Sequence record: MT611523.1
From: Escherichia phage DK-13
Direction: 5' to 3' (one strand)
DNA length: 64,000 bases
Shown here: one piece after another, positions 7,333-62,569 of the stretch
Numbering within the stretch: position 1 is the stretch's first letter
Layout of the letters: the number at the start of each line of letters is the position of its first letter
Translations under genes and position numbers: made by a program
The notes under the pieces: generated by a model
What the model was told of the DNA's origin: nothing
The model's database searches: none
What the model saw: the letters and a program-made list of their open reading frames with translations, nothing else

Positions 7333-7566
7333 TTATTTTATCATAACCTTTTTAGTTAAAAGCTCGTCGGGATGCCTTCTGGCGTATGAAGGGCTTTCTT
7401 TTACTGGGGTATTTGAAATAACATCACTTAATTTATCAGCTCTAGCTTTTAATTCTACGTGTTCTTTTGAATCTTTAAAAGGATGACTAATTATTTGCAA
7501 ATTAAGACCATGTAATTCATATTTAAGCCCTTCCATAAATCTTGCTGGGCACCCGTAATTATTCAT
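7333..7566 (-). CDS. hypothetical protein (77 aa)
   Basis: co-oriented ORF between HNH gene and soc. Confidence 0.3.
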   Translation of the reverse strand: MNNYGCPARFMEGLKYELHGLNLQIISHPFKDSKEHVELKARADKLSDVISNTPVKESPSYARRHPDELLTKKVMIK

Positions 7567-8407
7567 TTTCGAACCTCTTTACCATGTTTATATAATTTTC
7601 GTCTGGATAACCTAAACTAACTGCTAACTTTCTAAAATTCACATATTTAGGTTTGTTATTACTAAGCCATAAATCTCTAAGCTCAATTTCATAATTCCAT
7701 TTAAGCTGGTTTCCTCTAGCAGTTTTGCTCAAAGTTTTTCCTTTATCTTTTAGAGCTTTTTCCGAAGACTGTTTTAATTTTTGGAGATTTAAAACTTCCT
7801 CAACAGATAAATTATTTTCTTCTGCATAGCGCGCACAAAAATCTTTTACTGTAGCTATTAGACAGTTTTTGTGGGTACCTAAAACTTCCGGATTATTTTC
7901 TTCAACCAAAACTCCCCAGTATCTTCGATAGCGAGGCATATCCCGCGAAATCCAGTCATTATACCAGAAATCAAAATTAGAATACATAAAGGATTTTCTT
8001 TTACGGAGAATGTCTTGCTCTATCCACTCCCCGCGTTTATCGGCCCATAACTTAATAGTAAGGTCTTTCTCTAAATCAGAAAGCTTCTTAAACTGGGCAC
8101 TATTTGTTAGTGTCATTCTCTGGAATGCATTAAGCAAACCCAACACCCGAGTTGAGCACAAAAGATAATGAACATATATGTGTTGGTATATAGGAAGATA
8201 CACCCTATTCCAAGGAGAGATTTTAAAATCGCTGTATTCTGGAAATGCACACTTCGGAAGTATATGATGAGCTTCCGTTTTAGATTTGGTATGGACGTTT
8301 AGTTTATACTTATCTATAATTTTTAAGTAATCATCTAAAAGTTCCCATTGCGGGAACTTTTCTTTAAGAACGGATTTGAAATTAATATCCATTGTCCTGA
8401 CGTTCAA
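7559..8407 (-). CDS. HNH homing endonuclease (Mob-like), freestanding
   Basis: TEAHHILPK HNH core motif; sits at the gene 56/soc junction where T4 carries segF; 5' end overlaps gene 56 so exact start is uncertain. Confidence 0.75.
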   Translation of the reverse strand: MNVRTMDINFKSVLKEKFPQWELLDDYLKIIDKYKLNVHTKSKTEAHHILPKCAFPEYSDFKISPWNRVYLPIYQHIYVHYLLCSTRVLGLLNAFQRMTLTNSAQFKKLSDLEKDLTIKLWADKRGEWIEQDILRKRKSFMYSNFDFWYNDWISRDMPRYRRYWGVLVEENNPEVLGTHKNCLIATVKDFCARYAEENNLSVEEVLNLQKLKQSSEKALKDKGKTLSKTARGNQLKWNYEIELRDLWLSNNKPKYVNFRKLAVSLGYPDENYINMVKRFENE

Positions 8408-8897
8408 AGTTGTGTTTATTTTTCAAATAATAAAGTTTAAACATTTCTTCGGCTGACATATTAAGACCAATAGCCATATTGAATACAAAGTGCATAATGT
8501 CAATTAATTCAAATTTAATTTCGAGTTGGTCTTCAGGAGACATTTCTGAAATAGGTTTAGCTTGTGCTTCCAGATAACGAGCTTTCCATTTTTTCCAGAC
8601 ACCTGAAGCATCTTTTTCACCTTTAGACATTTCACCGAGAGAAGTCAAAAGTTCACGGAATTCATCATCAATACAGTCTTTCTGTTCGCGCATCCAGGCA
8701 ACTACATCGCCTGCAGTGGCCAGTTTATCCGGATGGTAGCAATAATCACGGTCATTAGCCAGACGAACCTGCAATGATTTCTGCATATCAAGCATAACTT
8801 GCAGTGGGTCAGTGCCTTCAAAAATTGCATTATCATAAGCGCCTTGAGCTTTATCAACACCAGCAATCAGTTGAGAACACTCGTTAAAATGAGCCAT
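8382..8897 (-). CDS. 56: dCTP pyrophosphatase (MazG-like) gp56
   Basis: near-collinear match to T4 gp56 from MAHFNEC onward; ORF-track start 8915 extends 6 codons upstream. Confidence 0.9.
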   Translation of the reverse strand: MAHFNECSQLIAGVDKAQGAYDNAIFEGTDPLQVMLDMQKSLQVRLANDRDYCYHPDKLATAGDVVAWMREQKDCIDDEFRELLTSLGEMSKGEKDASGVWKKWKARYLEAQAKPISEMSPEDQLEIKFELIDIMHFVFNMAIGLNMSAEEMFKLYYLKNKHNFERQDNGY

Positions 8898-9221: not shown

Positions 9222-9362
9222 CCAGTAAGAAAAGCCCATGATGTTTCTCTGTGGAACTTACTGGTTGTGCCTATCGCTGCAACACAAGGGGTGCACTTAC
9301 CTCAGGTCACAACGGAACATATCCATTCCATCATCGGTTACTTTACCGGAATCCCTTCCTAA
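9222..9362 (+). pseudogene. start-less, rearranged partial copy of the 8982-9179 gene
   Basis: translation ...LWNLLVVPIAATQGVHLPQV aligns with ...LWNFVVAPIALAHGVILPVV of the upstream gene; no start codon; preceded by a copy of that gene's 3' end. Confidence 0.35.
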
Positions 9363-10108
9363 ACTTTTGCGTACTTCCAAAAATGGCCGTTTGACCTATA
9401 CATTCGGCCTGTCTTTTTATTTCTTTTACAAGCTGTGTATATATTTTGAGTATTGCCCGCCAATTGTAATAATTCCTTTGCCTCAGCTCCCGAATTATAC
9501 TTTTCAAGTATATTACCAAATTCATCGCATCTACAAACCGGTGTTCCAGTTGCCTTTCGGCATGCTTCTCGGCGCAACTTTTTCGTTTCTTCGGTTTGCG
9601 GATTTTCTTTAAATCGTCTCATTTGTGCATCGCGATTCTTTTGCCGTTGTTCATCAGTAATTGGATTATTTTGATAATACAATTTTAATGAGTTGGCTAT
9701 TTTGCTTTTGGTTTTATCAGACGCAGGGTGGTCGTTATGTCGCTTGTGTAAAGCAATTAACATTTTGTCTTTAAACTCGGATTGACTCCATAAGTTTGAC
9801 ATATGTTCACTAACGGCTTTACTATGTTCTTTTCGCATCCATTCATATTTTGCGCTATCAAATTTGTCACCACACATCCGGTGTATAGCAAACATTAATT
9901 TAGAAAGTCGATAAATTTTAAAAAGTAACAAATGCGCAATAAAATGTTCTCTTGCTGATAACAATACCAAATTATCTTCGGTGTCAGGCCCACCCAAACA
10001 CCTTGGTAGTATATGATGGGACTCCGTATAAAATGGGATATTCTTTTTGTTTAGGCCCCTTGCGAGGCCTTTGTCTATTAATTTATTATATAATTTTAGA
10101 TAATTCAT
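9359..10108 (-). CDS. HNH homing endonuclease (Mob-like), freestanding
   Basis: ESHHILPRCLGG ... N ... H HNH motif; ATG overlaps gene 61 stop (ATGA). Confidence 0.8.
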   Translation of the reverse strand: MNYLKLYNKLIDKGLARGLNKKNIPFYTESHHILPRCLGGPDTEDNLVLLSAREHFIAHLLLFKIYRLSKLMFAIHRMCGDKFDSAKYEWMRKEHSKAVSEHMSNLWSQSEFKDKMLIALHKRHNDHPASDKTKSKIANSLKLYYQNNPITDEQRQKNRDAQMRRFKENPQTEETKKLRREACRKATGTPVCRCDEFGNILEKYNSGAEAKELLQLAGNTQNIYTACKRNKKTGRMYRSNGHFWKYAKV

Positions 10109-15159: not shown

Positions 15160-15488
15160 CTCTTTTTCATTTTAATCTTATCAATTTCATCTTGTATTTG
15201 CATTGTAACACACTTTTCTACATGCACAGCAAGCTCCGCTTTGCGGTCTTCGGAAGGGGTACCGAAATCAACTGAAACTTTTCCAGATGGTTCAATTTTA
15301 ATTCCGGTTACGTACACAATGTGACTGGACCCATCAGGGAGTGATAACAGAATTTCCTGTCGTACAGTTCCCATGGATTGCCGGATAATCTCCAAACTTT
15401 TTTCGTAGTAAGGTACAGAAGGAGCCTTAGCTCCCTCCGCATCTTTCTCGAAATTATCTAAATCAGATAAATCGATATCATTCATCAA
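15144..15488 (-). CDS. hypothetical protein (114 aa), in the T4 gene 40 position
   Basis: co-oriented ORF between uvsX and 41; assignment by position and size only. Confidence 0.4.
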   Translation of the reverse strand: MMNDIDLSDLDNFEKDAEGAKAPSVPYYEKSLEIIRQSMGTVRQEILLSLPDGSSHIVYVTGIKIEPSGKVSVDFGTPSEDRKAELAVHVEKCVTMQIQDEIDKIKMKKRWWKW

Positions 15489-16656
15489 GGTCTTCCATCA
15501 TATCTAAATCGTTTTCGATATCTGCAGCGGACGGTTTTGTCTTACCTTCAGGAGCAGAGTATTTTTCAACCTTGGAGGCAATAAGCGCATCAACTTCGGC
15601 ATCAACAACAGCATTGCTATCGATTGCACCCAGTTGGTAATGGCGTTTGATTGCATCACGGAAAGGTTCGTGTTTAAACAGCGGCCCCCAGAATTCGGTG
15701 CAGTTAGTATCTTTTGCGCGCCATGATTTTTCTTCGCGGACCATTTCCCCGGTCTCAACATCAAGATATTCACGGTTATACCAACCAACTTTTGGTTTAA
15801 CCACAAATCCGATTTCTATTGCCATATCAAGCAGGCCAGAATACGGGTCAATACCACCATCGAATTTTACATCAATGAAGAATTTACTTTTCTCTTTGAC
15901 CATACGAGATTTTTCGGCGTTCAGAACAAATTGGAAGCCTTCAAGTTCTTTACCAGTTTCTTTAATCTGACGTTTACCGATAATGAATACAGTGTCCGCG
16001 GAATACATAACACCTGTGCCACCGGTCATAACGGTTTTACTGTACATCTCAATCGTCTCGATTGTATGGTTAACCGCGACACAAGGAATATCCTTGATAC
16101 TAAAATAAGGGGTAACAATACGGAACAGAGATTTCAGGGATTTAGCACGAGTCATATCGCCAACGACTTTTTCGTTCATCGCATCTTCTGTTTCTTTTTT
16201 CGACGCCATGTTACCGATTGAGTCAATAAAGATAATGACTTTTTCACCACGCTCAATTGCTTCAAGCTGGTTAACCATATCAACTTTCAATTGTTCAACC
16301 GACTGGATTGGTGTATGGATAACACGCTCCGGGTCTACTTTCATTGCACGAAGATATGCTTCTGTGATACCAAATTCTGAATCATAGAACAAACAGATTG
16401 CGTCGGGGTATTTGTTCATATATGCAGAGACCATCGTTAAACCCATATTGGATTTAAAGTGTTTTGACGGACCAGCAAAAATAGTCAAACCTGACTGCAT
16501 ACCACCATCTAGTGCACCGCTGATTGCAATGTTCAGCATCGGGATTTTTGTACGAACTACATCTTTATCATTAAAGAACTTGGACTTGGTAAGAGTCGCA
16601 GTCATTTTGGATGTAGAAGCTTTAATCAAACGGGATTTCAAATCTGCAATAGACAT
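15478..16656 (-). CDS. uvsX: RecA-like recombinase UvsX
   Basis: 392 aa; Walker A GPSKHFKS; RecA-fold core. Confidence 0.9.
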   Translation of the reverse strand: MSIADLKSRLIKASTSKMTATLTKSKFFNDKDVVRTKIPMLNIAISGALDGGMQSGLTIFAGPSKHFKSNMGLTMVSAYMNKYPDAICLFYDSEFGITEAYLRAMKVDPERVIHTPIQSVEQLKVDMVNQLEAIERGEKVIIFIDSIGNMASKKETEDAMNEKVVGDMTRAKSLKSLFRIVTPYFSIKDIPCVAVNHTIETIEMYSKTVMTGGTGVMYSADTVFIIGKRQIKETGKELEGFQFVLNAEKSRMVKEKSKFFIDVKFDGGIDPYSGLLDMAIEIGFVVKPKVGWYNREYLDVETGEMVREEKSWRAKDTNCTEFWGPLFKHEPFRDAIKRHYQLGAIDSNAVVDAEVDALIASKVEKYSAPEGKTKPSAADIENDLDMMEDLDE

Positions 16657-16735
16657 TCATTTTTTCCATAGGCACCATTATATTTTTCTCACAGGTTTAA
16701 GATAGGATAATTATATCACTGTATTTTCAGAGCAA

Positions 16736-16864
16736 TTAACGATTGAATCCACGATTAATTGCACGTTCAACAATCTTCCGGGTCTGACGTTTGTCCCACC
16801 AGTACATAAAACCAATACCAAATGCAGACAACAGCCATAGGCTAATCAATAACATACCAATCAT
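16736..16864 (-). CDS. small membrane peptide (42 aa)
   Basis: hydrophobic N-terminus and basic tail; below the 60-aa track cutoff, found by hand translation. Confidence 0.3.
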   Translation of the reverse strand: MIGMLLISLWLLSAFGIGFMYWWDKRQTRKIVERAINRGFNR

Positions 16865-16885
16865 AATATTCTTCTCGCAGTTTGT

Positions 16886-17389
16886 TTAGTTAATACCTTG
16901 GCGTGCTTTCTCTTTAGCTACACATTTATTAATATAGCTCAGACGGTTTTGAGCAGAACGCTGATACATATCGCGGTACTCATTAGCTTTTGGAGAACCC
17001 GTCTCTGCTGCCTGATAAGCTTCTGCGCGCATGATGTTTATCTGCATATTGATGTATGACATGCAGACCTGTGAAATCTGGTTAACAGTATCCAGGTCAT
17101 TTTGTCGCTTGGTTTCTGCTTCCAGCTTGGCAATGATTTCGTCATGCTTCGCAGCTTGCTCGCGTTTGTACTCAATTTCTTGTTGAGCATATTTCGCGCA
17201 GTTGTTTCCACATTGATTGTTGTCGCGTTTGTAGATAAGTCCAGTACCACCTTTGAAATCAAAGGAACCATTATGCACCTGACGGTCTGCAGCAATTCGC
17301 GCTTTACCAATCTCGTTGGCATTAACAACATCACCCTGGTAAGCACAACCAGATAGCAGCATAACAGCTGCGATAGCTAACTTTTTCAT
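16886..17389 (-). CDS. lipoprotein (167 aa)
   Basis: signal peptide plus lipobox LLSGC; occupies the locus where T4 has beta-gt and gene 42. Confidence 0.6.
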   Translation of the reverse strand: MKKLAIAAVMLLSGCAYQGDVVNANEIGKARIAADRQVHNGSFDFKGGTGLIYKRDNNQCGNNCAKYAQQEIEYKREQAAKHDEIIAKLEAETKRQNDLDTVNQISQVCMSYINMQINIMRAEAYQAAETGSPKANEYRDMYQRSAQNRLSYINKCVAKEKARQGIN

Positions 17390-17397
17390 TTTGCTTC

Positions 17398-17541
17398 CTA
17401 ATTAAAACATTCATAGCGGGCTTGGAGCCCCAAAAATACCCAACCCAAAATTAAAGTTGGAATCATATGTGGAGTCATTATTGCCCAGTAGATTGACATA
17501 CTAAAAAATGCAATCAGTACAATAATTGTAATTATCTTCAT
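17398..17541 (-). CDS. small membrane peptide (47 aa)
   Basis: ATG overlaps imm stop (ATGA); hydrophobic; hand translation. Confidence 0.35.
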   Translation of the reverse strand: MKIITIIVLIAFFSMSIYWAIMTPHMIPTLILGWVFLGLQARYECFN

Positions 17542-17780
17542 TTTGATTCCTTGATGATAATTACTTGTGCGTTTGATTTACGTTCAGCAACGAGTGCCCA
17601 GATAAATGCAATAAACCATCCGACCATTGTCCAACCTAACAGAAGGTTAACAAAGAAGATTCCGCAATTACTTTTGGTACCACGCAGCAGCGCGATAATC
17701 CACGGCAGAAAATATGCCAGTGCAGCCAGGAAGAAAGAACCAGCCCCAAGAACAACAGTACCCGCAATTAATGTTTCCAT
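17538..17780 (-). CDS. imm: superinfection immunity membrane protein Imm-like
   Basis: 80 aa, two TM segments, LLGWTMVGWFIAFIWAL motif; T4 imm position adjacent to gene 43. Confidence 0.6.
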   Translation of the reverse strand: METLIAGTVVLGAGSFFLAALAYFLPWIIALLRGTKSNCGIFFVNLLLGWTMVGWFIAFIWALVAERKSNAQVIIIKESK

Positions 17781-17817
17781 TTTAATATCCTTAAGTTATT
17801 CATCAGTTGATGAGGTA

Positions 17818-17847
17818 ATCATACGGCAATCCATTGCCGTTGTAAAC
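17818..17847 (-). promoter_or_regulatory. early promoter (-35 GTTTAC / -10 TATGAT) with class-A leader
   Basis: T4-like GTTTAC -35 at 17842-17847, 18-nt spacer, TATGAT, leader TACCTCATCAACTGATGA. Confidence 0.5.
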
Positions 17848-17849
17848 AC

Positions 17850-20564
17850 TTAAAAGTCAAACATGTCAAAAAGAGTTGCTTTCTTTTCGTAATCAACCTT
17901 TGCAGCTTCAGAGAAACCTGTTAATGGCTTAACAAAAGTCTTCTGGAACAGTGTGTTGTAGTCCATCCACTGCAGAACCTGGTCACGGATTTCAATCGGG
18001 AGTTCAATCCCAGATGGCCATGCAATCACGGTTTCACCAAACGGGTTGCCGACTTTAAGAGGAAGTACATACACCTTTTCCCCTTCCATGATTTGCGGAA
18101 CAGTCTTCAGACCTTTAGTTGCACGCATATAAGCAAGCACACCTTTGATATGAGCCGGGCACTTAAATCCAGGGAAACCACCTTCATTATATTTCTGGAT
18201 GTTGTTAACCGATGATACACCTGCGATGGTCATGTAGTTAAGCTCATTAAATTCCTTATTGAATTCCTTGAAGTATGTCTGCAGAGATTCTTCACCTTCT
18301 TGCAGCATGCGGCGGATACATTCTTTCAGAGCTTTCTGACATGCCTTTGGAGTACTCGACTTTTGAGTTTCCAGACCCATAATTTTCAGTTTCGGAACAG
18401 CATAACGTGTGCCTTCCATATCGTACACGTTCAGCGCATAACGCTTCTTCGCCGTCCAGAATCCACCCACACCTTTAGAACCCAGCGGAGGACATGCAAT
18501 CGCCTCACGGTCCATAAACATAAGGTGCTGTTTGTTGTTCATGTATTCAGCCAGCTCACGGAAAGCTTTATCGATTGCCGGTTCCAGACGGTCTTTCGCA
18601 AACTTGTCCATGAAGTCAACCAGGTGGTTTGTATCACGGAATTTAGATTCGCCACCAACCTTTTTAATCAGGTTATCACACTGGATATAAATGGAGTCAG
18701 TATCGCCATAGAACACATAAGTTTCGCCGCTTGTCCCACAAACACTATCGAAGTATTCGTTAACTTTACGCTCAATCCACTGCAATGCAAGTTGTCCGAA
18801 AGATGTAATCGCGGTTGCATTTCGCAGGTCAAAGTAACGGAACCAGATATTGCCCAGAGCGCCATAACAGCTGTTGATAAGCAGCTTACGGTTAATCTGT
18901 GCGGTCATGCCTGCAACTTCTTCCATCTGCGCTTTATACAACATACCATTTAGGACTGTTTGATTCAGACCATGCAAGGTTGTTTTCATATTGTCATCAA
19001 AGTCATGACGATAATCAACTTCAGGTTCGGTTGTACCAGTTCCTGGATTGCGCAGAGCTTCCTTAATCAGTTCACCATTACGTTGAGCCGCAAGCATATA
19101 GCCTTTGTGCTCTTTACGCTGATTAAACACCTTGGTGACTTCTGTCGGAATAATACCCGCAACATCTTTAAAATACATCATACCATTTGGAGCACAACTA
19201 AATGTATCAGATGGACGGTCAGCAGTTCCGGCGATGTATTCATGCATTTGCGCAGGAGCAAATGAACCGGCAATCGTTTCTGGACTGATGTTAATCTGTC
19301 GGATAATGCTCGGATACAGAGATGTTAAGTCACAGCTCATTACATATTTGTACGCGTTCGGAATAGGTTCCTTAACAAATGCACCAGGGAACGATTGACG
19401 AACATGCGATTTGGTTTCCGGAATGACTTTGTTTTGAGTCTTCAGGCTGTTAAAGATAATCGCATCCCAAGTTTTGATTGGGCTGAATACAGACTGAATC
19501 TGCATTTTTGCGTAATAACCCATTGACTGACTCAGGTTAATAAACTGCCGCTTACGGTCAATCTGCACAACACGATAAACGTCGATGATGTTATAAGAAA
19601 TATACCGCTGGTGATTTGATTCGCGCAGTTTAGAAATCGGGCCATCATACGGGAGTTTACCAACACCCAGTTCAGATTCCGCAACATAATCCAACGAATA
19701 AGACGGTTGGTTTGTGAAGCTGAACTTTTTATACAGGTCCAGATAATCCAGAACAGAGATACCCAGAATCTGAATGATTTCTTGTTCTTCACCAAAGCCA
19801 TTGTTAATGACCTTAACTTTTGTACGACGATGTGGGCTCAGACGTTTTGCCGTAGCTTCACCAAATACATTTTTAAGGCGGTTGTAGATATATGGAATAT
19901 CAAATTTCTCGATGTTCCAACCAGTTAACATAACCGGAGTTTTCTCGTTCCAGAATACCAAATACTGCTGGAGCATTTCTTCTTCTGAATCGAAAGCCAT
20001 ATAAACAATTTTTTCCAGGATTTCTTCAGGGACTTCATCACCGCCGTCTTCCTGCAGCTTAGCAGCAATATCAATAGACCATTGCTCCACAGTGGCGTAT
20101 GGTGAGCCCAAAAGGTCAAAGACATAGAATTTATCGTCTACCGAATCATAGTGCGTCAGGGCATCAATAGGGTGACGTGCTTCAGACGGTTCAGGGAACC
20201 CATCAGGAGATGTCACCTCGATATCGAAGTTAGCAACACGGATTTTACTTGAATCATATTTGATTTCGTGTGGGTAACGGTCGGACAAGTATGCGAGTTT
20301 AAAGTCATCCATACCCATAGCTTCGAGACCCATGTCATTCATTCGCTTCATCCACTGGGATGCATCACGCATGGAATCGAATTCTTTTTTCACACAACCT
20401 TTATTATAGATGTCTGTATACTTTGCAGCCTGGCCTTCCCGGGCGTGCATAAACAAGCATGGGGCATAAGGGATTTCACGAACACGTTCATGACCATTCT
20501 TGTCAATATATCGTTCGAGTAGGTTGTCACCGATTTGTTCGATAGTTAAATAAAATTCTTGCAT
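17850..20564 (-). CDS. 43: DNA polymerase gp43 (family B)
   Basis: 904 aa; exo motif FDIEV, pol motifs DLTSLYPSI and YGDTDS; collinear with T4/RB69 gp43. Confidence 0.95.
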   Translation of the reverse strand: MQEFYLTIEQIGDNLLERYIDKNGHERVREIPYAPCLFMHAREGQAAKYTDIYNKGCVKKEFDSMRDASQWMKRMNDMGLEAMGMDDFKLAYLSDRYPHEIKYDSSKIRVANFDIEVTSPDGFPEPSEARHPIDALTHYDSVDDKFYVFDLLGSPYATVEQWSIDIAAKLQEDGGDEVPEEILEKIVYMAFDSEEEMLQQYLVFWNEKTPVMLTGWNIEKFDIPYIYNRLKNVFGEATAKRLSPHRRTKVKVINNGFGEEQEIIQILGISVLDYLDLYKKFSFTNQPSYSLDYVAESELGVGKLPYDGPISKLRESNHQRYISYNIIDVYRVVQIDRKRQFINLSQSMGYYAKMQIQSVFSPIKTWDAIIFNSLKTQNKVIPETKSHVRQSFPGAFVKEPIPNAYKYVMSCDLTSLYPSIIRQINISPETIAGSFAPAQMHEYIAGTADRPSDTFSCAPNGMMYFKDVAGIIPTEVTKVFNQRKEHKGYMLAAQRNGELIKEALRNPGTGTTEPEVDYRHDFDDNMKTTLHGLNQTVLNGMLYKAQMEEVAGMTAQINRKLLINSCYGALGNIWFRYFDLRNATAITSFGQLALQWIERKVNEYFDSVCGTSGETYVFYGDTDSIYIQCDNLIKKVGGESKFRDTNHLVDFMDKFAKDRLEPAIDKAFRELAEYMNNKQHLMFMDREAIACPPLGSKGVGGFWTAKKRYALNVYDMEGTRYAVPKLKIMGLETQKSSTPKACQKALKECIRRMLQEGEESLQTYFKEFNKEFNELNYMTIAGVSSVNNIQKYNEGGFPGFKCPAHIKGVLAYMRATKGLKTVPQIMEGEKVYVLPLKVGNPFGETVIAWPSGIELPIEIRDQVLQWMDYNTLFQKTFVKPLTGFSEAAKVDYEKKATLFDMFDF

Positions 20565-20621
20565 TTGATTTCCTTTATAGTCGAGTGATTGACTTTTGTT
20601 TTATGACTTGACGCTATTATA

Positions 20622-24211: not shown

Positions 24212-24928
24212 ATGAATTATAACATCATTTACCAAAAGCTTATTAGCAGAGCATTGAATCGCAAATTAACCACATACTCTGAAAGTCATCACATTATACC
24301 CCGTTGCATGGGTGGGGCAGACGACGCTTCAAATCTTGTTGATTTAACTCCCGAGGAACATTTCGTTTGTCATCAACTGTTGGTCAAAATGCATCCAAAT
24401 AATGCTTCTTTGGTCTATGCCGCGCGCATGATGACAGTTTCCTCACCAAACGCCGACAGAAGCAAAAACAAATTATTTGGATGGCTTCGTCGTAAAAACT
24501 TGGAAGCTCAACAAAATAAAATTTTCTCCGATGAAACCAGAAAGAAAATGTCAGAATCCGCCAAATTAAAACCGAGAGTTGAATGTCCACACTGTGGAAA
24601 AACCGGTCTCGTTGGCAATATGAATCGTTGGCATTTTGATAACTGTTCCAAAGGTCCAAACAAGGTTGTTCATACTATTCCAGAAAAACAAAAGCAAAAA
24701 ATTTCAGTAGGATTAAAACAAGCTAAACATGAAATTTTAACTTGTGAATTTTGTGGTCTTGAAGGTAAAAAGTGTGTTATATCCACTCACCAACAATTCT
24801 GCAAATCCAATCCAAACCGGAAGAAAAAGGTGGACCCCAAAATTCAGTGTCCACATTGTAATGTAGTCGGTACGCCAGCCAATATGAAACGTTGGCATTT
24901 TGATAACTGCAAAATGAAGCCTCAATAA
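24212..24928 (+). CDS. HNH homing endonuclease with C-terminal zinc-finger repeats, plus strand
   Basis: SESHHIIPRCMGG...N...H HNH core; three CxxC-x(n)-W/HxFDNC repeats; ATG 24212 chosen (ORF track starts at 24011). Confidence 0.75.
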   Translation: MNYNIIYQKLISRALNRKLTTYSESHHIIPRCMGGADDASNLVDLTPEEHFVCHQLLVKMHPNNASLVYAARMMTVSSPNADRSKNKLFGWLRRKNLEAQQNKIFSDETRKKMSESAKLKPRVECPHCGKTGLVGNMNRWHFDNCSKGPNKVVHTIPEKQKQKISVGLKQAKHEILTCEFCGLEGKKCVISTHQQFCKSNPNRKKKVDPKIQCPHCNVVGTPANMKRWHFDNCKMKPQ

Positions 24929-27069: not shown

Positions 27070-28085
27070 GGTTGCACCTCAAGGTATAATTTGTTGGCCA
27101 ATGCTTTGAGAGCTTTTGATTCTTTCTCATTGGCGTCAGGTAATGCATCGATATATTCTGCCATCATATCTGTTAAGCGTTTTATGTCTAACTCTTCATC
27201 AGAGTCTGATGTGTCAACACTGTTATCAACCTTATTGACAACACGCAATTCATGCACACGCTTTTCTAATTCAGATTCGAACTTGGTCAGGTCTTTATCG
27301 ACTTTTTCTACAATAACACGGACTGATAAGTCTTTGAAGTCGTCGTAGTTAATAGTTTCGTTTGGATAGAAAATCTTCCGATGCCAGGTGGTTTCATTCG
27401 GAATAAATTTCATCTCTTCGGTTTCGGTATCAAATTCCCAGAACCCGCGCGGGTCGTTCTCGTCACCTGCTGTTAATGTCCATGGTGTCCCGATGTACTT
27501 AACGTTTGCAGCTTCTGAAATTGTGTGGAAGTGACCAGACCAAACTTGCTTGTACTTCTTAAGGAAATCAGGCTCAAGTCCGTGGGATTTCAATCCTTTA
27601 TAGAAATAAAACCCGGTTAATTCCCAGTGACCGATGCAATATTCAGCCCCAGAAGTTTTGATATGTTGGTGAATGTCAGTTGCGTTCTCGTCACACATCC
27701 ATGGAATCATATCAATCTGACAACCGTCAAAATCAACAGTCGTTGGCTTATCGTAGATTTTAACATGGTCATACTTATTCAGGAGTTCAGTGATAGCATT
27801 AGGATGAATCTTATTCTTCAGATTCATGTCATGGTTCCCGACTATCGTGTGCATAGTAATTCCTGCTTCACGAAGGAGTTCCATAATCTCACGGCTGAAT
27901 TCCATCGTCTTATGCGTTACGGCCTTACGGACGTCAAAAATATCACCATATTGAATCCAGACTTTAATCCCATTCGCTTTGGAATATGCAATCGCCTGTA
28001 AAATACCATCGCGTTGAATGTTTTGAGCCCATGGGTCGTCAGCTTTGACACCTAAGTGCCAATCACCTAAATTTAAAATTTTCAT
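27066..28085 (-). CDS. 47: recombination nuclease subunit gp47 (Mre11/SbcD-like)
   Basis: 339 aa from MKILNLGDWHLG; phosphoesterase motifs D-x-H, GDIFD, GNHD; ORF-track start 28112 is 9 codons upstream. Confidence 0.92.
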   Translation of the reverse strand: MKILNLGDWHLGVKADDPWAQNIQRDGILQAIAYSKANGIKVWIQYGDIFDVRKAVTHKTMEFSREIMELLREAGITMHTIVGNHDMNLKNKIHPNAITELLNKYDHVKIYDKPTTVDFDGCQIDMIPWMCDENATDIHQHIKTSGAEYCIGHWELTGFYFYKGLKSHGLEPDFLKKYKQVWSGHFHTISEAANVKYIGTPWTLTAGDENDPRGFWEFDTETEEMKFIPNETTWHRKIFYPNETINYDDFKDLSVRVIVEKVDKDLTKFESELEKRVHELRVVNKVDNSVDTSDSDEELDIKRLTDMMAEYIDALPDANEKESKALKALANKLYLEVQP

Positions 28086-28225
28086 AAGCCAAGCGCCGTT
28101 ATCGCAGTGCAAAATAAAATTATTGAAATGAACCCGTCAGGAGTGGAAAAGAATCCTATCCAACAAGCTCTTGTGAATGTGTAGAATGCCATGAATAGCA
28201 CGACATATCCTAAAAATAATTCCAT
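28082..28225 (-). CDS. small hydrophobic peptide (47 aa)
   Basis: SD GAGGAG, stop overlaps gene 47 ATG (ATGA); hand translation. Confidence 0.35.
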   Translation of the reverse strand: MELFLGYVVLFMAFYTFTRACWIGFFSTPDGFISIILFCTAITALGL

Positions 28226-28264: not shown

Positions 28265-28292
28265 AAAGCAAAAAAGGAAGCACTAGGCTTCC
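28265..28292 (-). terminator. rho-independent terminator
   Basis: AGGAAGC-ACTA-GGCTTCCT hairpin followed by T-run on minus strand. Confidence 0.5.
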
Positions 28293-28514
28293 TTTCCAAT
28301 TAATACACCATACAGAGGTTCATGAGAAGACCTGAACTTGATAGGCTTATAGGTAATAGTACCTTCATTTTCTGCTTTAATACGAGCAGCTTCAAATTGA
28401 AGAATCATCTCGTTTTTGTCAGATTTAATCTTATCAAAATCCGTCGAATTCGTCATTCATATGACCTCTTAAAAATCTGGATGTTCGTCGTTCATTAGCC
28501 ACCTGTCCATGTTA

Positions 28515-28715
28515 TCATCGTTGCCACCATTTCTTAAGTTGATGAGAATCGACCCAAACCTTGGCTACAGGCTCAATCTGAAAAATACCATCAGAATATT
28601 GGCCCATCATTTTGTATTCGGTTTCGGTTTGCTTGATACAGATATTACCGTATGAGCGAAGTCTGAAAGCGGCTCCAACAAGAAGCCGTTTAAAAGGTTT
28701 ATTTACTAATGCCAT
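28515..28715 (-). CDS. hypothetical protein (66 aa)
   Basis: co-oriented ORF in the locus where T4 has alpha-gt. Confidence 0.35.
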   Translation of the reverse strand: MALVNKPFKRLLVGAAFRLRSYGNICIKQTETEYKMMGQYSDGIFQIEPVAKVWVDSHQLKKWWQR

Positions 28716-29010
28716 TTACGATTTCCCAAATTTGTTTGCGAGTAGAATCCCACATCAACTTAATCAGGTCTTCCGTAACTGGTTGGCGGTAAATTCCACG
28801 CAGTTTAACAAGAGCATATTTGTATGCTTCAAAATTGTTTTCCAGCACTGCCCCTTGAGCATGCTTATTCAGTCGTGCAATTTCACGAGCATTCTTTTTC
28901 AGAATCTTCGCTGCTTGACTGGTTGCTTCGAGTGCGTTCGCTTCTTCGAGACGTTCCTGTGCTTCTTCAATCTGCTTATCGGTCAGTTGAGAAATATCTG
29001 GAGCTTGCAT
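28699..29010 (-). CDS. hypothetical protein (103 aa)
   Basis: co-oriented helical ORF. Confidence 0.4.
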   Translation of the reverse strand: MQAPDISQLTDKQIEEAQERLEEANALEATSQAAKILKKNAREIARLNKHAQGAVLENNFEAYKYALVKLRGIYRQPVTEDLIKLMWDSTRKQIWEIVNGISK

Positions 29011-29011
29011 A

Positions 29012-29281
29012 TTAATCCTTGGGAGTTAACTCAATTGTAAAATATAGATTAGCATTATCCACATGATAACGGTAATCAACGTTATTGTCCGGAGAAGTAA
29101 ATTCCAGATTCCGGACGTTTAAAGGGTCGATATCAATTGGAAGACCTTTTATGTCTCGCAGATAAAGTTTAATGAAATATGGGAGAGCCGTAAAGTCTTC
29201 CTCGATTTTATCTAAAAAATCGGTAATATCAAATTGATGTTCCATATAAAAAATCCAAATCACCCTCTTTATCTTTGGCAC
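29012..29281 (-). CDS. hypothetical protein (89 aa)
   Basis: co-oriented ORF; 5' end overlaps gene 55 so true start is probably internal. Confidence 0.35.
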
Positions 29282-29786
29282 TCTTATCAGACCCTGGCGC
29301 TTTAACTAAGGAGGATTCGTACTGTGTCATTTTGTCATAGATGTCCTGGATAAATGTTTCATCAGCCAGAGCCACCATATCGTCATCACGTGAATCATAT
29401 ACGTTATGGACGAAGTAGCTATATTTCTTTGCCATTTCTTTACGTTCTTTTTTGATACGCTGAACGAAAGCATTGAAGCAAGCCATTGTTATGTAAGCAT
29501 GTGGATTATCGTATTTTGTTTCGTCGAAGTTGTGAAGACCTTTTATTGCGGCCTCAATACCGTCAGCAATCATTTCTTGCTTCCAGGATTGGGTATATCC
29601 GGAGAAGTTGAAACGTTTGCTAAGACCTTCGGCTATAAGCATAATCGCCAGACCAATAACATCGTTCTGGCGAATAATTTTGTTCGGGTCGGTGTTCGCA
29701 TTCAGCTTCTGTTTCCACTCCGAAATAGCTTTCAAAAGCTCTTTATTATTTACATAGTTATTCTTGGTTAATTTAATTTCGTTCAT
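29229..29786 (-). CDS. 55: late sigma factor gp55
   Basis: 185 aa; NYVNNKELL...[18 protein letters not shown] collinear with T4 gp55. Confidence 0.92.
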
Positions 29787-32939: not shown

Positions 32940-33410
32940 TTAATCATGTTTCCACACCCCATTGGTATTTGACCAAAGTCGCTGATTATCTGACCCTCGC
33001 CACAGTTTTTTGGTCGGAAGATTTTTCTCATACTTCCCATCAATAATAACATCAACATATTTAAGCATTTCTAGTTGTTTAATATCTTCAAACTTATATC
33101 CTGTCCACAGCCAAATGTTTTTATTGGGATAAAGATTTTTAATAGTTTGAACCACAGAGTGAATAACATCTCGGTTATCAGGATAGAGAGGGTCTCCTCC
33201 AGTTATAGTTAATCCTTCTATATAATCATTATTCAAACATTCAATTAATTGTTCTAGTGTTTCACCAGTGAATGGAACACCATTTCTAGCATTCCATGTT
33301 GATTTATTATAACACCCTTCGCATTTATGCAAACAACCTGTAACGAAAAGAACGACCCTACATCCAGGGCCATTCACAAAATCGCAAGGATAAAATCTAT
33401 CATAATTCAT
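32940..33410 (-). CDS. nrdG: anaerobic ribonucleotide reductase activase NrdG (radical SAM)
   Basis: 156 aa; CxxxCxxC cluster (GCLHKCEGC). Confidence 0.88.
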   Translation of the reverse strand: MNYDRFYPCDFVNGPGCRVVLFVTGCLHKCEGCYNKSTWNARNGVPFTGETLEQLIECLNNDYIEGLTITGGDPLYPDNRDVIHSVVQTIKNLYPNKNIWLWTGYKFEDIKQLEMLKYVDVIIDGKYEKNLPTKKLWRGSDNQRLWSNTNGVWKHD

Positions 33411-35224
33411 TGGTGTTTAACCCTATGCATGATTTCTTTATTTTTGCCGAGATTAAATCCGCGTTCGTTCGGATTTCCCAAATAGCCGCATGTTCTTCTT
33501 ATTGTGTTCATCTTTTTAGGGTCAGTTTCTCCACAAATAGAACAAACAAATCCGTTTTCAGTAGGAGTCATTTCATGGGTACTTCCACATGTAAAACATT
33601 TATCCACTGGCATATTAACACCAAAATAATCTAAATGCTGTGCAGCATAATCCCATACAGCCTCAAGACCTTTTAGGTTATTTTTCATATCAGGAAGTTC
33701 AACATAAGAAATGTGACCGCCTGTCGCAATGAAATGATATGGGGCTTCACGAGAAATCTTTTCAAACGGGGTAATATTTTTTTCTACTGAAACATGGAAA
33801 CTGTTAGTGTACCAGCCTTTATCGGTAACATCTTTTACACTTCCATATTTTTCGGTATCAAGTTTACAGAAGCGATAGCACAGGTTTTCAGCAGGAGTAG
33901 AATACAAACTAAAAGCAAATCCGGTTCTTTCAGTCCACTGCTTAAGACGAGCATTCATTTTAGTCAAAATTTCTTGCCCAATATCACGACCGGCAAGAAT
34001 ATTCAATTCGTGAATACCGATGTATCCTAGGGACACTGAACTTCTACCGTTTTTAAATAACTCAATTATATCATCATCAGGTTTAAGACGAACCCCGAAT
34101 GCACCTTCTTGGTAAAGAATAGGAGCAACAGTCGCTTTAACTCCTTTTAAGGAACTAATTCTACACATCAAAGCTTCAAAACATAAATCCATTCGCTCAT
34201 TGAACAATTCAGTAAATTTCTGTTCATTGAACTGTGTTCCAATATAAGAATCTAACGCAATACGAGGAAGATTCAGTGTTACAACACCAAGATTATTACG
34301 TCCATCAAGAATTTCATTACCAGTCGAATCTTTCCATACGCCCAAGAAACTACGGCAACCCATTGGAGAAACAGGAATAGATGAACCGGTGATAGCTTTA
34401 TTGTTCTTAGCCGAAATGATGTCAGGATACATTCTTTTGCTTGCACACTCTAGAGCAAGCTGCTTAATATCATAGTTCGGGTCGTCTTTATAAAGATTAA
34501 CACCTTCTTCAACAAACATAACAAGCTTAGGGAAAATAGGAGTTATCCCATCGCGACCGAGACCTTTAATACGATTTTTCAGAATTGCTTTCTGAATCAT
34601 TCGTTCGGTCCAGTCAGTTCCGGTACCAAATGTAATTGTTACAAAAGGCGTTTGTCCGTTTGAACTAAAGAGAGTATTTACTTCATATTCATAAGCTTGG
34701 AATGCATCATATACGTCTTTTTCTGTTTTAGATTGAGCATAATTCAACGCATCAGTGATTTGCCATTTTTCCGCGTCCTCAATATGTTTCGCATAGGTAC
34801 GTTTAACATAAGGAGAAAGTACTTTATCTACATTCGCAAAAGTCGTTCCGCCATATTGATGGGAAGCAACCTGCGCAGTAATTTGTGCCATAATTGCAGT
34901 AGCAACACTGATTGATTTAGGAGTTTCAATCTGTGCATTACCGAGCTTAAACCCGTTCTCAAGCATTCCTTTTAAATCTACTAAACAGCAATTAGTAAAT
35001 GGAAGAGCAGGGGAATAATCAATATCATGGAAATGAATAATTCCGCTTTCATGTGCTTTCATAATAAAAGACGCGACCATATTTTTGGCAATGTGTTTAG
35101 ATACAATACCAGCCATAAGGTCACGTTGAGTTGGAAAAACACGAGAATCTTTATTAGCATTCTCGTTTAAAAGGTCTTTATTAGTTTTATGAATCAATCC
35201 TTCAATTTCGTTTTCAATTGTCAT
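33407..35224 (-). CDS. nrdD: anaerobic ribonucleoside-triphosphate reductase NrdD
   Basis: 605 aa, same length as T4 NrdD; C-terminal glycyl-radical motif RTCGYLG and Cys cluster; uninterrupted (no intron). Confidence 0.93.
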   Translation of the reverse strand: MTIENEIEGLIHKTNKDLLNENANKDSRVFPTQRDLMAGIVSKHIAKNMVASFIMKAHESGIIHFHDIDYSPALPFTNCCLVDLKGMLENGFKLGNAQIETPKSISVATAIMAQITAQVASHQYGGTTFANVDKVLSPYVKRTYAKHIEDAEKWQITDALNYAQSKTEKDVYDAFQAYEYEVNTLFSSNGQTPFVTITFGTGTDWTERMIQKAILKNRIKGLGRDGITPIFPKLVMFVEEGVNLYKDDPNYDIKQLALECASKRMYPDIISAKNNKAITGSSIPVSPMGCRSFLGVWKDSTGNEILDGRNNLGVVTLNLPRIALDSYIGTQFNEQKFTELFNERMDLCFEALMCRISSLKGVKATVAPILYQEGAFGVRLKPDDDIIELFKNGRSSVSLGYIGIHELNILAGRDIGQEILTKMNARLKQWTERTGFAFSLYSTPAENLCYRFCKLDTEKYGSVKDVTDKGWYTNSFHVSVEKNITPFEKISREAPYHFIATGGHISYVELPDMKNNLKGLEAVWDYAAQHLDYFGVNMPVDKCFTCGSTHEMTPTENGFVCSICGETDPKKMNTIRRTCGYLGNPNERGFNLGKNKEIMHRVKHQ

Positions 35225-38483: not shown

Positions 38484-38799
38484 ATCGGTGTTTACAATGT
38501 CTGCATTTATAACGAAGATTACTAGTCTGCCAATGGACTAACTGGACCTGCTCAGTTCCACATTCTGGACAGTTTGGAATACGCTTAGAAGCACGTTCAC
38601 GGCGTCGAACCATAGTCATTACCATATCCCAATCAGTAACCTGACTATAATCGTCACAGCCATGAATCTTTCCCAACTGCACAAGGTCAGCACCCTCAGC
38701 GTTTTCAATAAATTTTAAAAGACCTTTATTAACCCCCGCAGCGGGGGTCCATTCTGGAAATGCAGTTTCTGCAATATCTTCAGCTAAACGTTGTTTCAT
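38461..38799 (-). CDS. zinc-ribbon protein (112 aa)
   Basis: CPECG...CRHC four-Cys motif. Confidence 0.4.
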   Translation of the reverse strand: MKQRLAEDIAETAFPEWTPAAGVNKGLLKFIENAEGADLVQLGKIHGCDDYSQVTDWDMVMTMVRRRERASKRIPNCPECGTEQVQLVHWQTSNLRYKCRHCKHRFEREENE

Positions 38800-39785
38800 T
38801 TCAGCAGCTCCAGAGCCTGTTCCAGTTTATCCAGACGATTAGTTGATTCTTCCCAAAGTCGCTTGGCTTTGGTATAGTCTTCAGTTGCCTTTTTATTAAC
38901 AGCAAGAGCTTTATTATACGCCATTTCCAGAGCAACAATTTCAGGCGCTTTTTGTTCCACTGGCTCATTATTCAGATTATCAATCAGGTCTTCAAGGGTG
39001 GTTTCTTGTGGTGCATTCATAATTTCCTCACTTTTCTTTTTATAAATTTCTGCAACAGTTGGTTGTTTTGCACATTTAACTTCATGCAATGTCGTCACAA
39101 TTTTCCAACCTTTCCAACCATGAGTACTGGTGATAGGGTCTACTTTAATTTTTTCAACAGTACGCATATAGTTAAGGGCACACTGCAGCTGATGAGTAAG
39201 AACGCATGCAACGTCAAGATACTTTTTGACATTTTCTGGAGTAGCCACTGGTGTAAAGAACTCATACTTAACTGTAATAATTACCTGGTTTTCACCAGAC
39301 TCTTTAACATTTATCATGTGCCCAGCCAGATGGGAGATAGTGCGATAATCGCCACCCATCAATTTTGTCGCTGATTTGATGATAGACATTTTGTTATCTC
39401 TGAATTCACGAGCCCAACAATTTGCGAATTCAGAAGCAGTATAGCCTTGTTTATCAAGATAGTATTTTTCAACATCGCCAAACCAATGATATCCAATTGT
39501 ACCTTTACCACGTCTGGATTCAACACCAAACTTGTTAAGAATGTCTTTATTAACCAGGTATGCCAGGACTCGGGAACTTTTAAAAGTTTTCTTGATATCA
39601 TCGTTACCAGCACGACTCGCAATAGTTGCAATGTCTTTCTTGAAGCGGCCAGATGCAACAATCGTCGAGTCAATCTGATTTAACCAATAATTGATAATTA
39701 AAAGGATAGCCGATTCGCCTATCAATGGTTTTACTTTTGTGTCGATAGTTGCGTTAAAGGCCTGGATATATTCGTTACGTGTCAT
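38796..39785 (-). CDS. hypothetical protein with C-terminal coiled coil (329 aa)
   Basis: long co-oriented ORF; heptad-like C-terminus ...LDKLEQALELLK. Confidence 0.5.
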   Translation of the reverse strand: MTRNEYIQAFNATIDTKVKPLIGESAILLIINYWLNQIDSTIVASGRFKKDIATIASRAGNDDIKKTFKSSRVLAYLVNKDILNKFGVESRRGKGTIGYHWFGDVEKYYLDKQGYTASEFANCWAREFRDNKMSIIKSATKLMGGDYRTISHLAGHMINVKESGENQVIITVKYEFFTPVATPENVKKYLDVACVLTHQLQCALNYMRTVEKIKVDPITSTHGWKGWKIVTTLHEVKCAKQPTVAEIYKKKSEEIMNAPQETTLEDLIDNLNNEPVEQKAPEIVALEMAYNKALAVNKKATEDYTKAKRLWEESTNRLDKLEQALELLK

Positions 39786-43096: not shown

Positions 43097-43143
43097 CATA
43101 TACTAAATAAAAATACTTAATAAAACCATAAAGGAGAAAGTTT

Positions 43144-43890
43144 ATGATTTTATCCGGAAGAACTGTTGATGAACTCAATGAAAAAGTCCAGGCTGCCTTG
43201 GCTGATAATTGGTATTTGTTTGGTTCTACTATGGTGTTGCCGAATACCCCTACAGATAGCAAAGAGCGTTTTTTCCAAACTATGTCCAGCTCGGAAACTC
43301 AGATACCGGGTCCGCCTGGTCCCAAAGGAGAACCGGGTGTACCCGGACCAAAAGGAGACCCAGGTGGGGATGGAAAATCTTCTTATCAGATATGGCTTGA
43401 CTTGGGAAATACAGGAACTGTTGATGATTTTTTAACTGATACAGCAGGAAAGAGGGAAAAATCCGAGGTGTTTTGGAGTGGTATAAACGTTCTATTAACT
43501 AATGGTACGACTTCAAACATAATTAGTGTTTTAAAGGGGATTCCACCGACTGCAGGGACTCTATCTCCGTTTTTTAGAACCACTGATGATAAGTTGTGGC
43601 CATATAACCAAGACAGAAGCCTAATGTTTAAACTCAACCTTATTGGTAATTTTGCAGGAGCCTCGCAAGCTCGAAGTATAACATTAAATTTCGTTGGAAC
43701 CAACGGAAACACTTATATACAGAATCGTCCGGAAAATGCTACAGATATTTTGTCTTTTACAACGTTCTTTAGCATTGATAAAGATGGGGCAATGGCAACC
43801 AATGGTACAGCTATAACTGTTATGCCAAATGGCGGCAACTTTACAATAACCTCCGCATTGTTAGTAGCCGAACAAACAGTGACTTCATAA
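43144..43890 (+). CDS. collagen-repeat protein (248 aa), plus strand
   Basis: SD AAGGAGAAAG 5 nt before ATG; seven consecutive G-X-Y triplets (GPPGPKGEPGVPGPKGDPGGDG) after a ~60-aa N-terminal domain, then a ~165-aa Gly/Thr/Asn-rich C-terminal domain. Confidence 0.6.
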   Translation: MILSGRTVDELNEKVQAALADNWYLFGSTMVLPNTPTDSKERFFQTMSSSETQIPGPPGPKGEPGVPGPKGDPGGDGKSSYQIWLDLGNTGTVDDFLTDTAGKREKSEVFWSGINVLLTNGTTSNIISVLKGIPPTAGTLSPFFRTTDDKLWPYNQDRSLMFKLNLIGNFAGASQARSITLNFVGTNGNTYIQNRPENATDILSFTTFFSIDKDGAMATNGTAITVMPNGGNFTITSALLVAEQTVTS

Positions 43891-43913
43891 ACAAAAAAGG
43901 GCCATCCGGCCCT
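43891..43913 (-). terminator. rho-independent terminator
   Basis: AGGGCC-ATCC-GGCCCT hairpin followed by T-run on minus strand. Confidence 0.5.
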
Positions 43914-44155
43914 TAGATTGCACTCCAAAAATTATGGAATCTTATAGTATTGATAGCCCAGTTAACAAACCTGCGAGTTTGTTTGGGAGTTGGTTTGCAT
44001 ATGTACTTATTGTTGATTCGTCTGCCAGTTTCCCGACAGACTGCTTCGAGATACCAGCGCCGACCTTTATTAGGTCTTCCGTATGATAAGAAGACCTTCA
44101 TTTCTTCATTAACGATAATAGGAATTGTGGTTGTCAAGGTATACCTCTTCAACAA
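43913..44155 (-). CDS. hypothetical basic protein (80 aa)
   Basis: co-oriented ORF; overlaps the 3' end of the nucleotidyltransferase-like gene in another frame. Confidence 0.3.
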   Translation of the reverse strand: MLKRYTLTTTIPIIVNEEMKVFLSYGRPNKGRRWYLEAVCRETGRRINNKYICKPTPKQTRRFVNWAINTIRFHNFWSAI

Positions 44156-62489: not shown

Positions 62490-62540
62490 TTTATTTCTCC
62501 AAAGTTTTGTTTGATTCAGTGTGTAACTCAGTATGGAATC

Positions 62541-62569
62541 ATTATGCATCCAGTCAATTCGGATGTACA
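62541..62569 (-). promoter_or_regulatory. early promoter with class-B leader
   Basis: -35 TGTACA (62564-62569), 17-nt spacer, -10 CATAAT (62541-62546). Confidence 0.5.

Follow-up and report, generated by a model that had tools for sequence, protein, structure and literature searches.

Absence of hydroxymethylation and glucosylation genes in Gaprivervirus phages and a putative route to 5-methylcytosine DNA through an altered thymidylate synthase

The window analysed here, a stretch of 64,000 nucleotides from Escherichia phage DK-13 (MT611523.1), has a G+C content of about 39–40%, carries nearly all of its genes on the minus strand and follows the gene order of the T4 early region. A megablast search with positions 15400–20600 returned 32 phage records covering at least 80% of the query, and the top matches listed (P479, 98.4%; CJ20, 98.1%; SP18, 97.9%; VR20, 96.7%; VR7, 94%) are Gaprivervirus-group phages (Straboviridae, Tevenvirinae). 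For positions 40000–64000 the best match in the phage collection reached 96%. The window is assigned to the genus Gaprivervirus (VR7/SP18/P479 group, 94–98% identical), and its closest relative is P479. Gene content differs within the genus, nrdD and nrdG being present in the window and in P479 and absent from VR7. About 106 kb of the phage genome lies outside the window. The td gene is about 80 kb outside it, so td could be read from relatives only.

In T4 the interval between uvsX and gene 43 holds segA, β-gt, 42, imm and imm.1. The original prediction, made from the sequence alone, was that gene 42 and β-gt are missing here and that the interval holds only a lipoprotein (16886–17389), two small membrane peptides and imm. 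The ORF content matches this description (Table 1), and tblastn of T4 gp42, β-gt and α-gt against the whole window gave nothing better than E 0.12. A better comparator than T4 for this interval is JS98/RB69, with its 5-hydroxy-dCMP synthase and arabinosylation module. RB69 gp48 is a 5-hydroxy-dCMP synthase in the arabinosylation pathway, and comparative genomics suggests that Dhakavirus has the pathway too (PMC13326640). The order in JS98 (Dhakavirus) is uvsX, a small ORF, orf38, orf39, orf40, orf41, orf42, the orf43 lipoprotein, orf44, imm and 43, where orf38 is RB69 047-like and orf39 is an RB69 048-like thymidylate synthase (TS) homologue. The orf38–orf42 module of about 4.2 kb occupies the site of the 21-nt spacer in the window, and T4 has 42, β-gt and segA at this place. 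Gaprivervirus is thus without a block of about 4.2 kb that is carried by its relatives, and the best explanation is that it has lost the whole uvsX–43 cytosine-modification module kept by them.

Table 1. Positions of the features of the window that are discussed in the text
Feature	Position	Strand	Basis
Gene 56, dCTPase/dUTPase, intact	8382–8897	-	80% identical to T4 gp56 over 171/171 residues; phrog_173, E 1e-41
uvsX, interval boundary	15478–16656	-	392-aa ORF, 98.5% identical to VR7 UvsX
42-aa membrane peptide ORF, just upstream of uvsX	16736–16864	-	Conserved in VR7, P479 and JS98; annotated in P479; JS98 counterpart adjoins uvsX (alignment)
Junction, 21-nt spacer between lipoprotein stop and small ORF start	16865–16885	.	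Alignment against JS98; T4 layout
Lipoprotein, 167 aa, signal peptide and lipobox LLSGC	16886–17389	-	Sequence; phrog_1754; JS98 orf43 homologue
47-aa membrane peptide (VR7 'gp42.1', JS98 orf44-like)	17398–17541	-	VR7 annotation; comparison with JS98
imm, superinfection immunity protein	17538–17780	-	Pfam PF14373 Imm_superinfect, E 1e-17; 52% identical to T4 Imm
Gene 43, DNA polymerase, interval boundary	17850–20564	-	98.6% identical to VR7 gp43
47.1	28082–28225	-	blastp to T4 and JS98 ORFs
Gene 47, end	~28085–28112		
α-gt.2	28283–28456	-	blastp to T4 and JS98 ORFs
α-gt.3	28515–28715	-	blastp to T4 and JS98 ORFs
α-gt.4	28699–29010	-	blastp to T4 and JS98 ORFs
α-gt.5	29012–29245	-	blastp to T4 and JS98 ORFs
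Gene 55	29229–29786		
tk, thymidine kinase	48464–49036	-	98.9% identical to VR7 Tk

Regarding the lipoprotein, it is 47% identical to JS98 orf43 and 24% identical to T4 Imm.1 over 100 aa (E 1e-5, blastp). Judged from this alignment it is a distant homologue of T4 Imm.1, a relationship that adds to the earlier description of the interval. A role in superinfection exclusion can be suggested from position only and is a guess.

The 47–55 interval of T4 consists of 47.1, α-gt, mobB and α-gt.2 to α-gt.5. Comparison by blastp with T4 and JS98 ORFs identified 47.1 and α-gt.2 to α-gt.5 in the window, and neither α-gt nor mobB is present between 28082 and 29245. The absence of α-gt had been predicted together with an interval made up of small ORFs only, and this description of the content holds. 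As a diagnostic sign the gap does not hold, since JS98, a phage with modified cytosine, is arranged identically in this interval.

The dCTPase gene 56 had been described as intact, and it aligns with its T4 counterpart along the full length. The exclusion of dC that an intact gp56 implies is reinforced by the genes kept in VR7, namely denA, denB, alc, ndd, cd and gene 1. The first four, all outside the window, are annotated in P479 as well. An orthologue of cd is present in VR7 and P479 about 12 kb from td, and it is not a linked 5mC-selective deaminase. The window also carries tk, a thymidine salvage route that becomes relevant if Td no longer makes dTMP.

The original prediction left two possibilities: the cytosine-modification genes lie elsewhere in the genome, or the phage uses a different chemistry. 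The search of the rest of the genome that it had proposed was run on the relatives VR7 and P479. Six-frame translations of the window, VR7 and P479 were searched by phmmer, tblastn and a TS-family HMM, the queries being T4 gp42, β-gt, α-gt and Dam, JS98 orf38–orf42 and the HMM; the positive control, uvsX, was recovered. No homologue of gp42, the glucosyltransferases, JS98 orf38–orf42 or Dam was found in the window, in VR7 (about 98% scanned) or in P479 (about 99%), about 2–3 kb at the start of the VR7 and P479 reference genomes being outside the scan. In the scanned parts of both relatives td is the sole TS-family match. The VR7 annotation has neither gene 42 nor a glucosyltransferase, and it lists td, frd and 56 besides the genes named above. 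Two genome surveys (2021, 2025) already report the absence, a published table in one of them gives hmC synthase as absent for the genus, and both propose an unknown non-canonical base. The absence of these genes from Gaprivervirus is therefore already published. With two near-complete genomes, the VR7 annotation and two surveys in agreement, a relocated gene 42 or glucosyltransferase in Gaprivervirus is ruled out. It is the second possibility, a different chemistry, that is favoured: td, the only member of the TS family in the genus, has an Asn177-to-Asp change, and the cytosines of VR7 are reported to be modified and unglycosylated.

Two proteins of the window were considered as modification enzymes and rejected. 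The homologue of VR7ORF147c (62064–62549), annotated as cytidine/deoxycytidylate-deaminase-like, was considered as a possible 5mC deaminase. The HxE/PCxxC motif is missing from it, Pfam gives no match even at E 10, and its only PHROG matches are to families of unknown function; a paralogue lies at 61168–61611. The product of 56150–56836 ('phytanoyl-CoA dioxygenase' in EAWsc9) was a candidate for a Gaprivervirus-specific enzyme. Many T4-like genera whose modifications differ share this protein, with conservation of at least 70%. Its AF2 model (pLDDT 82.8) is placed by Foldseek weakly among small-molecule 2OG-Fe(II) oxygenases, not among TET/JBP proteins.

The td product of VR7 has QRSVDVFLGLPFDIGSY where T4 Td and E. 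coli ThyA have GLPFNIASY, i.e. aspartate at the position of E. coli ThyA Asn177. An initial protein-database search gave Asp in four Gaprivervirus clusters and Asn in 115 other Tevenvirinae Td sequences, and cluster members were then added. Asp is found in 17 of 17 full-length Gaprivervirus Td (GLPFDIGSY), among them those of P479, CJ20, SP18, VR25, VR26, MN01, UPEC01 and YenM_P8, while all 116 other Tevenvirinae Td have Asn (GLPFNIASY). No gaps fall at this site when the sequences are aligned with that of the T4 Td crystal structure. The presence of Asp in DK-13 itself is inferred from these relatives. The catalytic residues that were checked, those conserved in Tevenvirinae Td, are all kept in Gaprivervirus (R21, E58, W80, Y94, R126/127, C146, H147, Q165, R166, S167, D169, H207 and Y209), and the C-terminal tail is conserved as well. 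Besides Asp, the fixed changes are A179G, A182G and residues 148/149 beside the catalytic Cys-His. The frd gene is retained and overlaps td, and the order frd–td–nrdA is conserved (VR7, P479). Gaprivervirus Td passes the NCBIfam thymidylate synthase equivalog model, which explains why surveys have counted it as ordinary Td.

E. coli Asn177 corresponds to L. casei Asn229 and is the determinant of pyrimidine specificity; the replacement N177D/N229D turns TS into a dCMP methylase, T4 gp42 has Asp179 at the equivalent position, and Asp177 is a marker of cytosine-modified contigs in metaviromes (PMC8670742). Most of the Asp177 phage TS homologues that have been assayed produce 5mdCMP, T4 gp1 channels 5mdCMP to the dNTP pool, and XP12 and other 5mC phages get their dTTP by deamination of 5-methyl-dC nucleotides (10.1101/2024.12.05.627091). 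It should be stressed that Asp177 alone cannot separate a methylase from a hydroxymethylase, as it occurs in hydroxymethylases too. The C-terminal tail of TS seals the active site for hydride transfer and is missing in T4 dCMP hydroxymethylase (PMC6400193). On sequence grounds, the conserved TS residues, the C-terminal tail and frd in Gaprivervirus would favour methylation over hydroxymethylation.

Experimental evidence on the DNA comes from an E. coli BREX study, which states that VR7 has 'modified ... cytosines in [its] unglycosylated DNA' (PMC6326788). Its supplement classes the DNA of T4 and VR5 as glycosylated and that of T4147 as hydroxymethylated, and for VR7 it gives 'modified cytosines'; digestion was with EcoRII, SalI and Csp6I, either directly or after treatment with T4 beta-glucosyltransferase (PMC6326788). 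The VR7 report, judged from its wording alone, fits a small C5 modification other than hmC, and this evidence is indirect. In the literature searched we found no nucleoside analysis of any Gaprivervirus.

We propose that a repurposed Td makes 5-methyl-dCMP and that gp56, gp1, Cd, DenA/B and Alc, which the genus has kept, impose the substitution. The activity of Td on dCMP is inferred, and we lean towards this reading without being confident of it. Gaprivervirus DNA would then probably carry 5-methylcytosine in place of cytosine, an identity of the base deduced without nucleoside data. In such a pathway gp56 would hydrolyse dCTP and dCDP to dCMP, presumably sparing 5-methyl-dCTP, and the Asp-bearing Td would convert dCMP to 5-methyl-dCMP using methylene-THF. 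The DHF released in this reaction could be recycled by the adjacent Frd. Phosphorylation of 5-methyl-dCMP to 5-methyl-dCTP would fall to the gp1 dNMP kinase and the host NDP kinase, and gp43 would incorporate the product into DNA. DenA, DenB and Alc would act selectively on dC-containing host DNA, attacking or silencing it, and it has to be presumed that DenB and Alc ignore 5mC. The source of dTMP is likewise an inference: Cd may supply it by deaminating 5-methyl-dC nucleotides, or host ThyA or tk salvage may provide it. A 5mC model needs no glycosyltransferase, which explains why both intervals are empty. New here is the explanation by an Asp-type Td and 5mC, that is XP12-like dCMP methylation arising in place; the missing genes were already known. 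We found no paper that links Gaprivervirus to an Asp-type Td or to 5mC, most subscription journals being outside the search.

VR7 was grown on BL21(DE3) in the BREX study (PMC6326788). No Arn homologue is annotated in VR7. BL21(DE3) may be McrBC+, and the escape of unglycosylated 5mC DNA from McrBC-type (type IV) restriction is left unexplained by the 5mC model.

We cannot exclude the view of the 2021 and 2025 papers that some other, unknown cytosine base is made by unrecognised enzymes among the hypothetical proteins, the Td substitution being incidental or secondary, although we consider it unlikely. In its favour, many Gaprivervirus ORFs have no assigned function and a 2OG-oxygenase-like protein is present in the window. 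However, Pfam, PHROG and NCBIfam searches of about 50 window and VR7 proteins revealed no methyltransferase, glycosyltransferase, TET/JBP protein or second TS, and the oxygenase-like protein is common to many genera with other modifications. An unknown base also leaves the invariant Asp177, which recurs in other lineages lacking gene 42, without explanation.

Bare, non-glycosylated 5-hydroxymethylcytosine, with the Asp-bearing Td acting as a dCMP hydroxymethylase, is a reading to which we give little credence. It would agree with modified and unglycosylated VR7 DNA, T4 gp42 likewise has Asp at this position, and hmC is known to be compatible with the T4 machinery (gp56, gp1, DenB, Alc). But a single N229D change in a true TS yields a methylase (PMC8670742), and Gaprivervirus Td keeps the TS tail and the hydride-transfer residues that dCMP hydroxymethylase is missing, with frd kept and overlapping td. 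Furthermore, the BREX study calls T4147 'hydroxymethylated' and VR7 just 'modified cytosines', with T4 beta-glucosyltransferase in the assay (PMC6326788).

It is very unlikely that the DNA is unmodified as in RB49/RB43, with gp56 serving only as dUTPase and DenB and Alc inactive or differently controlled. RB49-type phages are also without gene 42 and have a gp56 homologue and denA. Unlike these unmodified 'pseudo-T-even' phages, Gaprivervirus has denB and alc, neither of which is present in RB49, its Td has Asp where RB49 Td has Asn, and its gp56 is close to that of T4. Moreover, the cytosines of VR7 were found by experiment to be modified (PMC6326788). Finally, that this isolate carries gene 42 and the transferases in the 106 kb beyond the window is hardly credible: the rest of its genome is unseen and gene content does vary in the genus, as nrdD and nrdG illustrate, but no such gene was found in the scanned parts of VR7 and P479, the published table lists hmC synthase as absent for the genus, and Asp is present in all 17 Td sequences.

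The proposed conversion of Td to a 5-methyl-dCMP-forming enzyme has its closest parallel in the Xanthomonas phage XP12 and the Pseudomonas phage PaMx74, in which cytosine is completely replaced by 5-methylcytosine through a TS-homologue dCMP methylase. Gaprivervirus resembles them in that its TS-family enzyme has Asp where E. coli has Asn177, in that modification is inferred to take place on the mononucleotide, and in the lack of glycosylation. Cd could act as the deaminase that makes thymidine nucleotides from 5-methyl-dC nucleotides, provided that its specificity allows it. The features of TS-type reductive chemistry expected of an XP12-type enzyme (the catalytic Cys, Glu58, Tyr94, the C-terminal tail and a DHFR partner, frd) are present in the Gaprivervirus relatives. 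Unlike in XP12 and PaMx74, the Gaprivervirus enzyme stands at the td locus of a T4-like phage, beside frd and nrdA, and is 65–69% identical to genuine T4-type Td, which suggests that the phage's own thymidylate synthase was converted in place. It is also paired with the T4 anti-dC toolkit (gp56, DenA, DenB, Alc, Ndd), its methylase activity remains inferred, and the deaminase is an ordinary Cd orthologue rather than a linked 5mC-selective one. The same single change has been made in the laboratory in E. coli ThyA N177D and L. casei TS N229D, with the TS active site otherwise intact, and there it moved the substrate from dUMP to dCMP and gave 5-methyl-dCMP as product. In contrast to these mutants, the change in Gaprivervirus is fixed naturally across the genus and is accompanied by A179G, A182G and the changes at residues 148/149.

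Compared with the hmC system of T4, Gaprivervirus keeps gp56 (80%), gene 1, cd, denA, denB, alc, ndd, frd and the overall layout, and lacks gene 42 and the glucosyltransferases, with no Dam homologue found by phmmer in the genomes scanned. The closest relatives, RB69/JS98 (Mosigvirus, Dhakavirus), have an arabinosyl-5-hydroxycytosine system. Gaprivervirus shares with JS98 the flanking uvsX, orf43 lipoprotein, orf44, imm and 43 and an identical 47–55 interval. It differs in that orf38–orf42, which comprise 5-hydroxy-dCMP synthase, kinase-like, isomerase and transferase genes, are absent, and JS98 Td has Asn.

Asp at the Asn177 position is not limited to Gaprivervirus. The Acinetobacter phages 133 and ZZ1, reported in a published survey to be without gp42 and to have denB, alc and dCTPase, both have Asp there. 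Asn is found in Acinetobacter phage Lazarus, whose group is reported to share a 5-hydroxy-dC gene cluster, and in RB49, from which gene 42, denB and alc are absent. In a distance tree the Gaprivervirus Asp clade is sister to the T4/JS98/Bp7 Asn clade and the Acinetobacter Asp forms are placed elsewhere. The tree suggests that Asp arose independently in Gaprivervirus and in the 133/ZZ1 lineage or lineages. Horizontal acquisition of an Asp-type Td was considered and rejected, since the tree and the conserved frd–td–nrdA order favour change in place. A rule for T4-like phages can be stated in which the absence of gene 42, the presence of denB and alc and an Asp177 Td go together, and it held in three lineages and two controls. 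In the widest form of our hypothesis, Gaprivervirus and, independently, phages 133/ZZ1 would be fully 5mC-substituted T4-like phages that converted their own thymidylate synthase by an Asn-to-Asp change, discarded gene 42 and obtain thymidylate through Cd deamination of 5-methyl-dC nucleotides or from the host. Such a history would repeat the N177D experiment in nature and give the T4 family a third cytosine chemistry, one that reuses the whole anti-dC host-shutoff apparatus; we regard the case for this wider claim as evenly balanced.

The surveys (2021, 2025) left the Gaprivervirus base open and hence could not advise on therapeutic use, while a single Td residue gives a specific and cheaply testable answer, 5mC. 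If this answer is true, every Gaprivervirus genome carries a wrong 'thymidylate synthase' annotation and Tevenvirinae have a third cytosine chemistry. For Gaprivervirus, susceptibility to McrBC, MspJI-type enzymes and BREX would then be expected, along with insensitivity to restriction enzymes that 5mC blocks, and an easily grown coliphage would be a natural source of fully 5mC DNA.

JS98 and T4 Td are 83% identical, whereas VR7 Td is only 68.5% identical to that of JS98 and 65% to that of T4. VR7 and JS98 are nevertheless the closest pair for seven of nine replication proteins, the exceptions being uvsX, for which they are not, and gp47, which ties. The divergence of Td between phages with such close replication proteins points to a faster change of Td on the Gaprivervirus branch, as far as can be judged from pairwise identities.

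The Alc protein, part of the T4-type machinery acting on dC-containing DNA, is strongly divergent between the Gaprivervirus VR7 and the Dhakavirus JS98. Specifically, identity is only 46.7% between alc of VR7 (L004, the VR7 sequence: 38497-39000) and alc of JS98 (L007, the JS98 sequence: 9343-9837), below the 65-90% found for most proteins compared between these two phages. Low Alc identity could mean that this blocker of transcription from dC-DNA has adapted to a different phage base. In T4, dam sits between genes 56 and 61; searches of the window, VR7 and P479 turned up no homologue of Dam. Three homing-endonuclease-like ORFs flank genes 56, 61 and 46 in the window, and the two on the (-) strand fall in stretches unaligned to P479.

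Regarding possible enzymes, the 228-aa VR7ORF134c counterpart has the invariant residue pattern HHDD...WHTG...R. All top Foldseek PDB matches of its AF2 model (pLDDT 82.8) are 2OG-Fe(II) oxygenases, namely proline hydroxylase, EctD, GriE and SptF, but their TM-scores are low, only 0.3-0.39. The protein is at least 70% conserved in T4-like phages of Escherichia, Citrobacter, Serratia, Erwinia and Aeromonas and in some Klebsiella contigs. A deaminase was also considered and rejected: the GenBank note 'similar to cytidine/deoxycytidylate deaminase' on VR7ORF147c is backed by no motif or profile. Its homologue in the window and the paralogue of that homologue have a common C-terminal domain (phrog_18416 / phrog_9997). 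VR7 has no counterpart of the DUF7338 protein.

Features of the window, with coordinates and annotation
Feature	Window coordinates	Strand	Length (aa)	Annotation
MobE-like ORF	7559-8392	(-)	277	
HNH ORF	9359-10108	(-)	249	
MobE-like ORF	24212-24928	(+)	238	
nrdG + nrdD	32940-35224	(-)	156; 605	radical-SAM activase; anaerobic ribonucleotide reductase
Knob-like ORF	43144-43890	(+)	248	PHROG 'tail needle knob', E 3e-67; early region, opposite strand
VR7ORF134c counterpart	56150-56836	(-)	228	RB69 ORF132c-like
DUF7277 + DUF7275 protein	56896-57855	(-)	319	'nucleotidyltransferase' in EAWsc9
ORF	61168-61611	(-)	147	paralogue of 62064-62549
ORF	62064-62549	(-)	161	homologue of VR7ORF147c
DUF7338 protein	62631-63185	(-)	184	

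The window and P479 both carry nrdG and nrdD, but VR7 lacks a counterpart of either gene, so the anaerobic supply of dNTPs differs within the genus. The knob-like ORF has no counterpart in VR7 or P479, window 43098-44108 being unaligned, and is carried by both RZ and EAWsc9; this gene for a tail-knob-like domain appears to be a mobile insertion.
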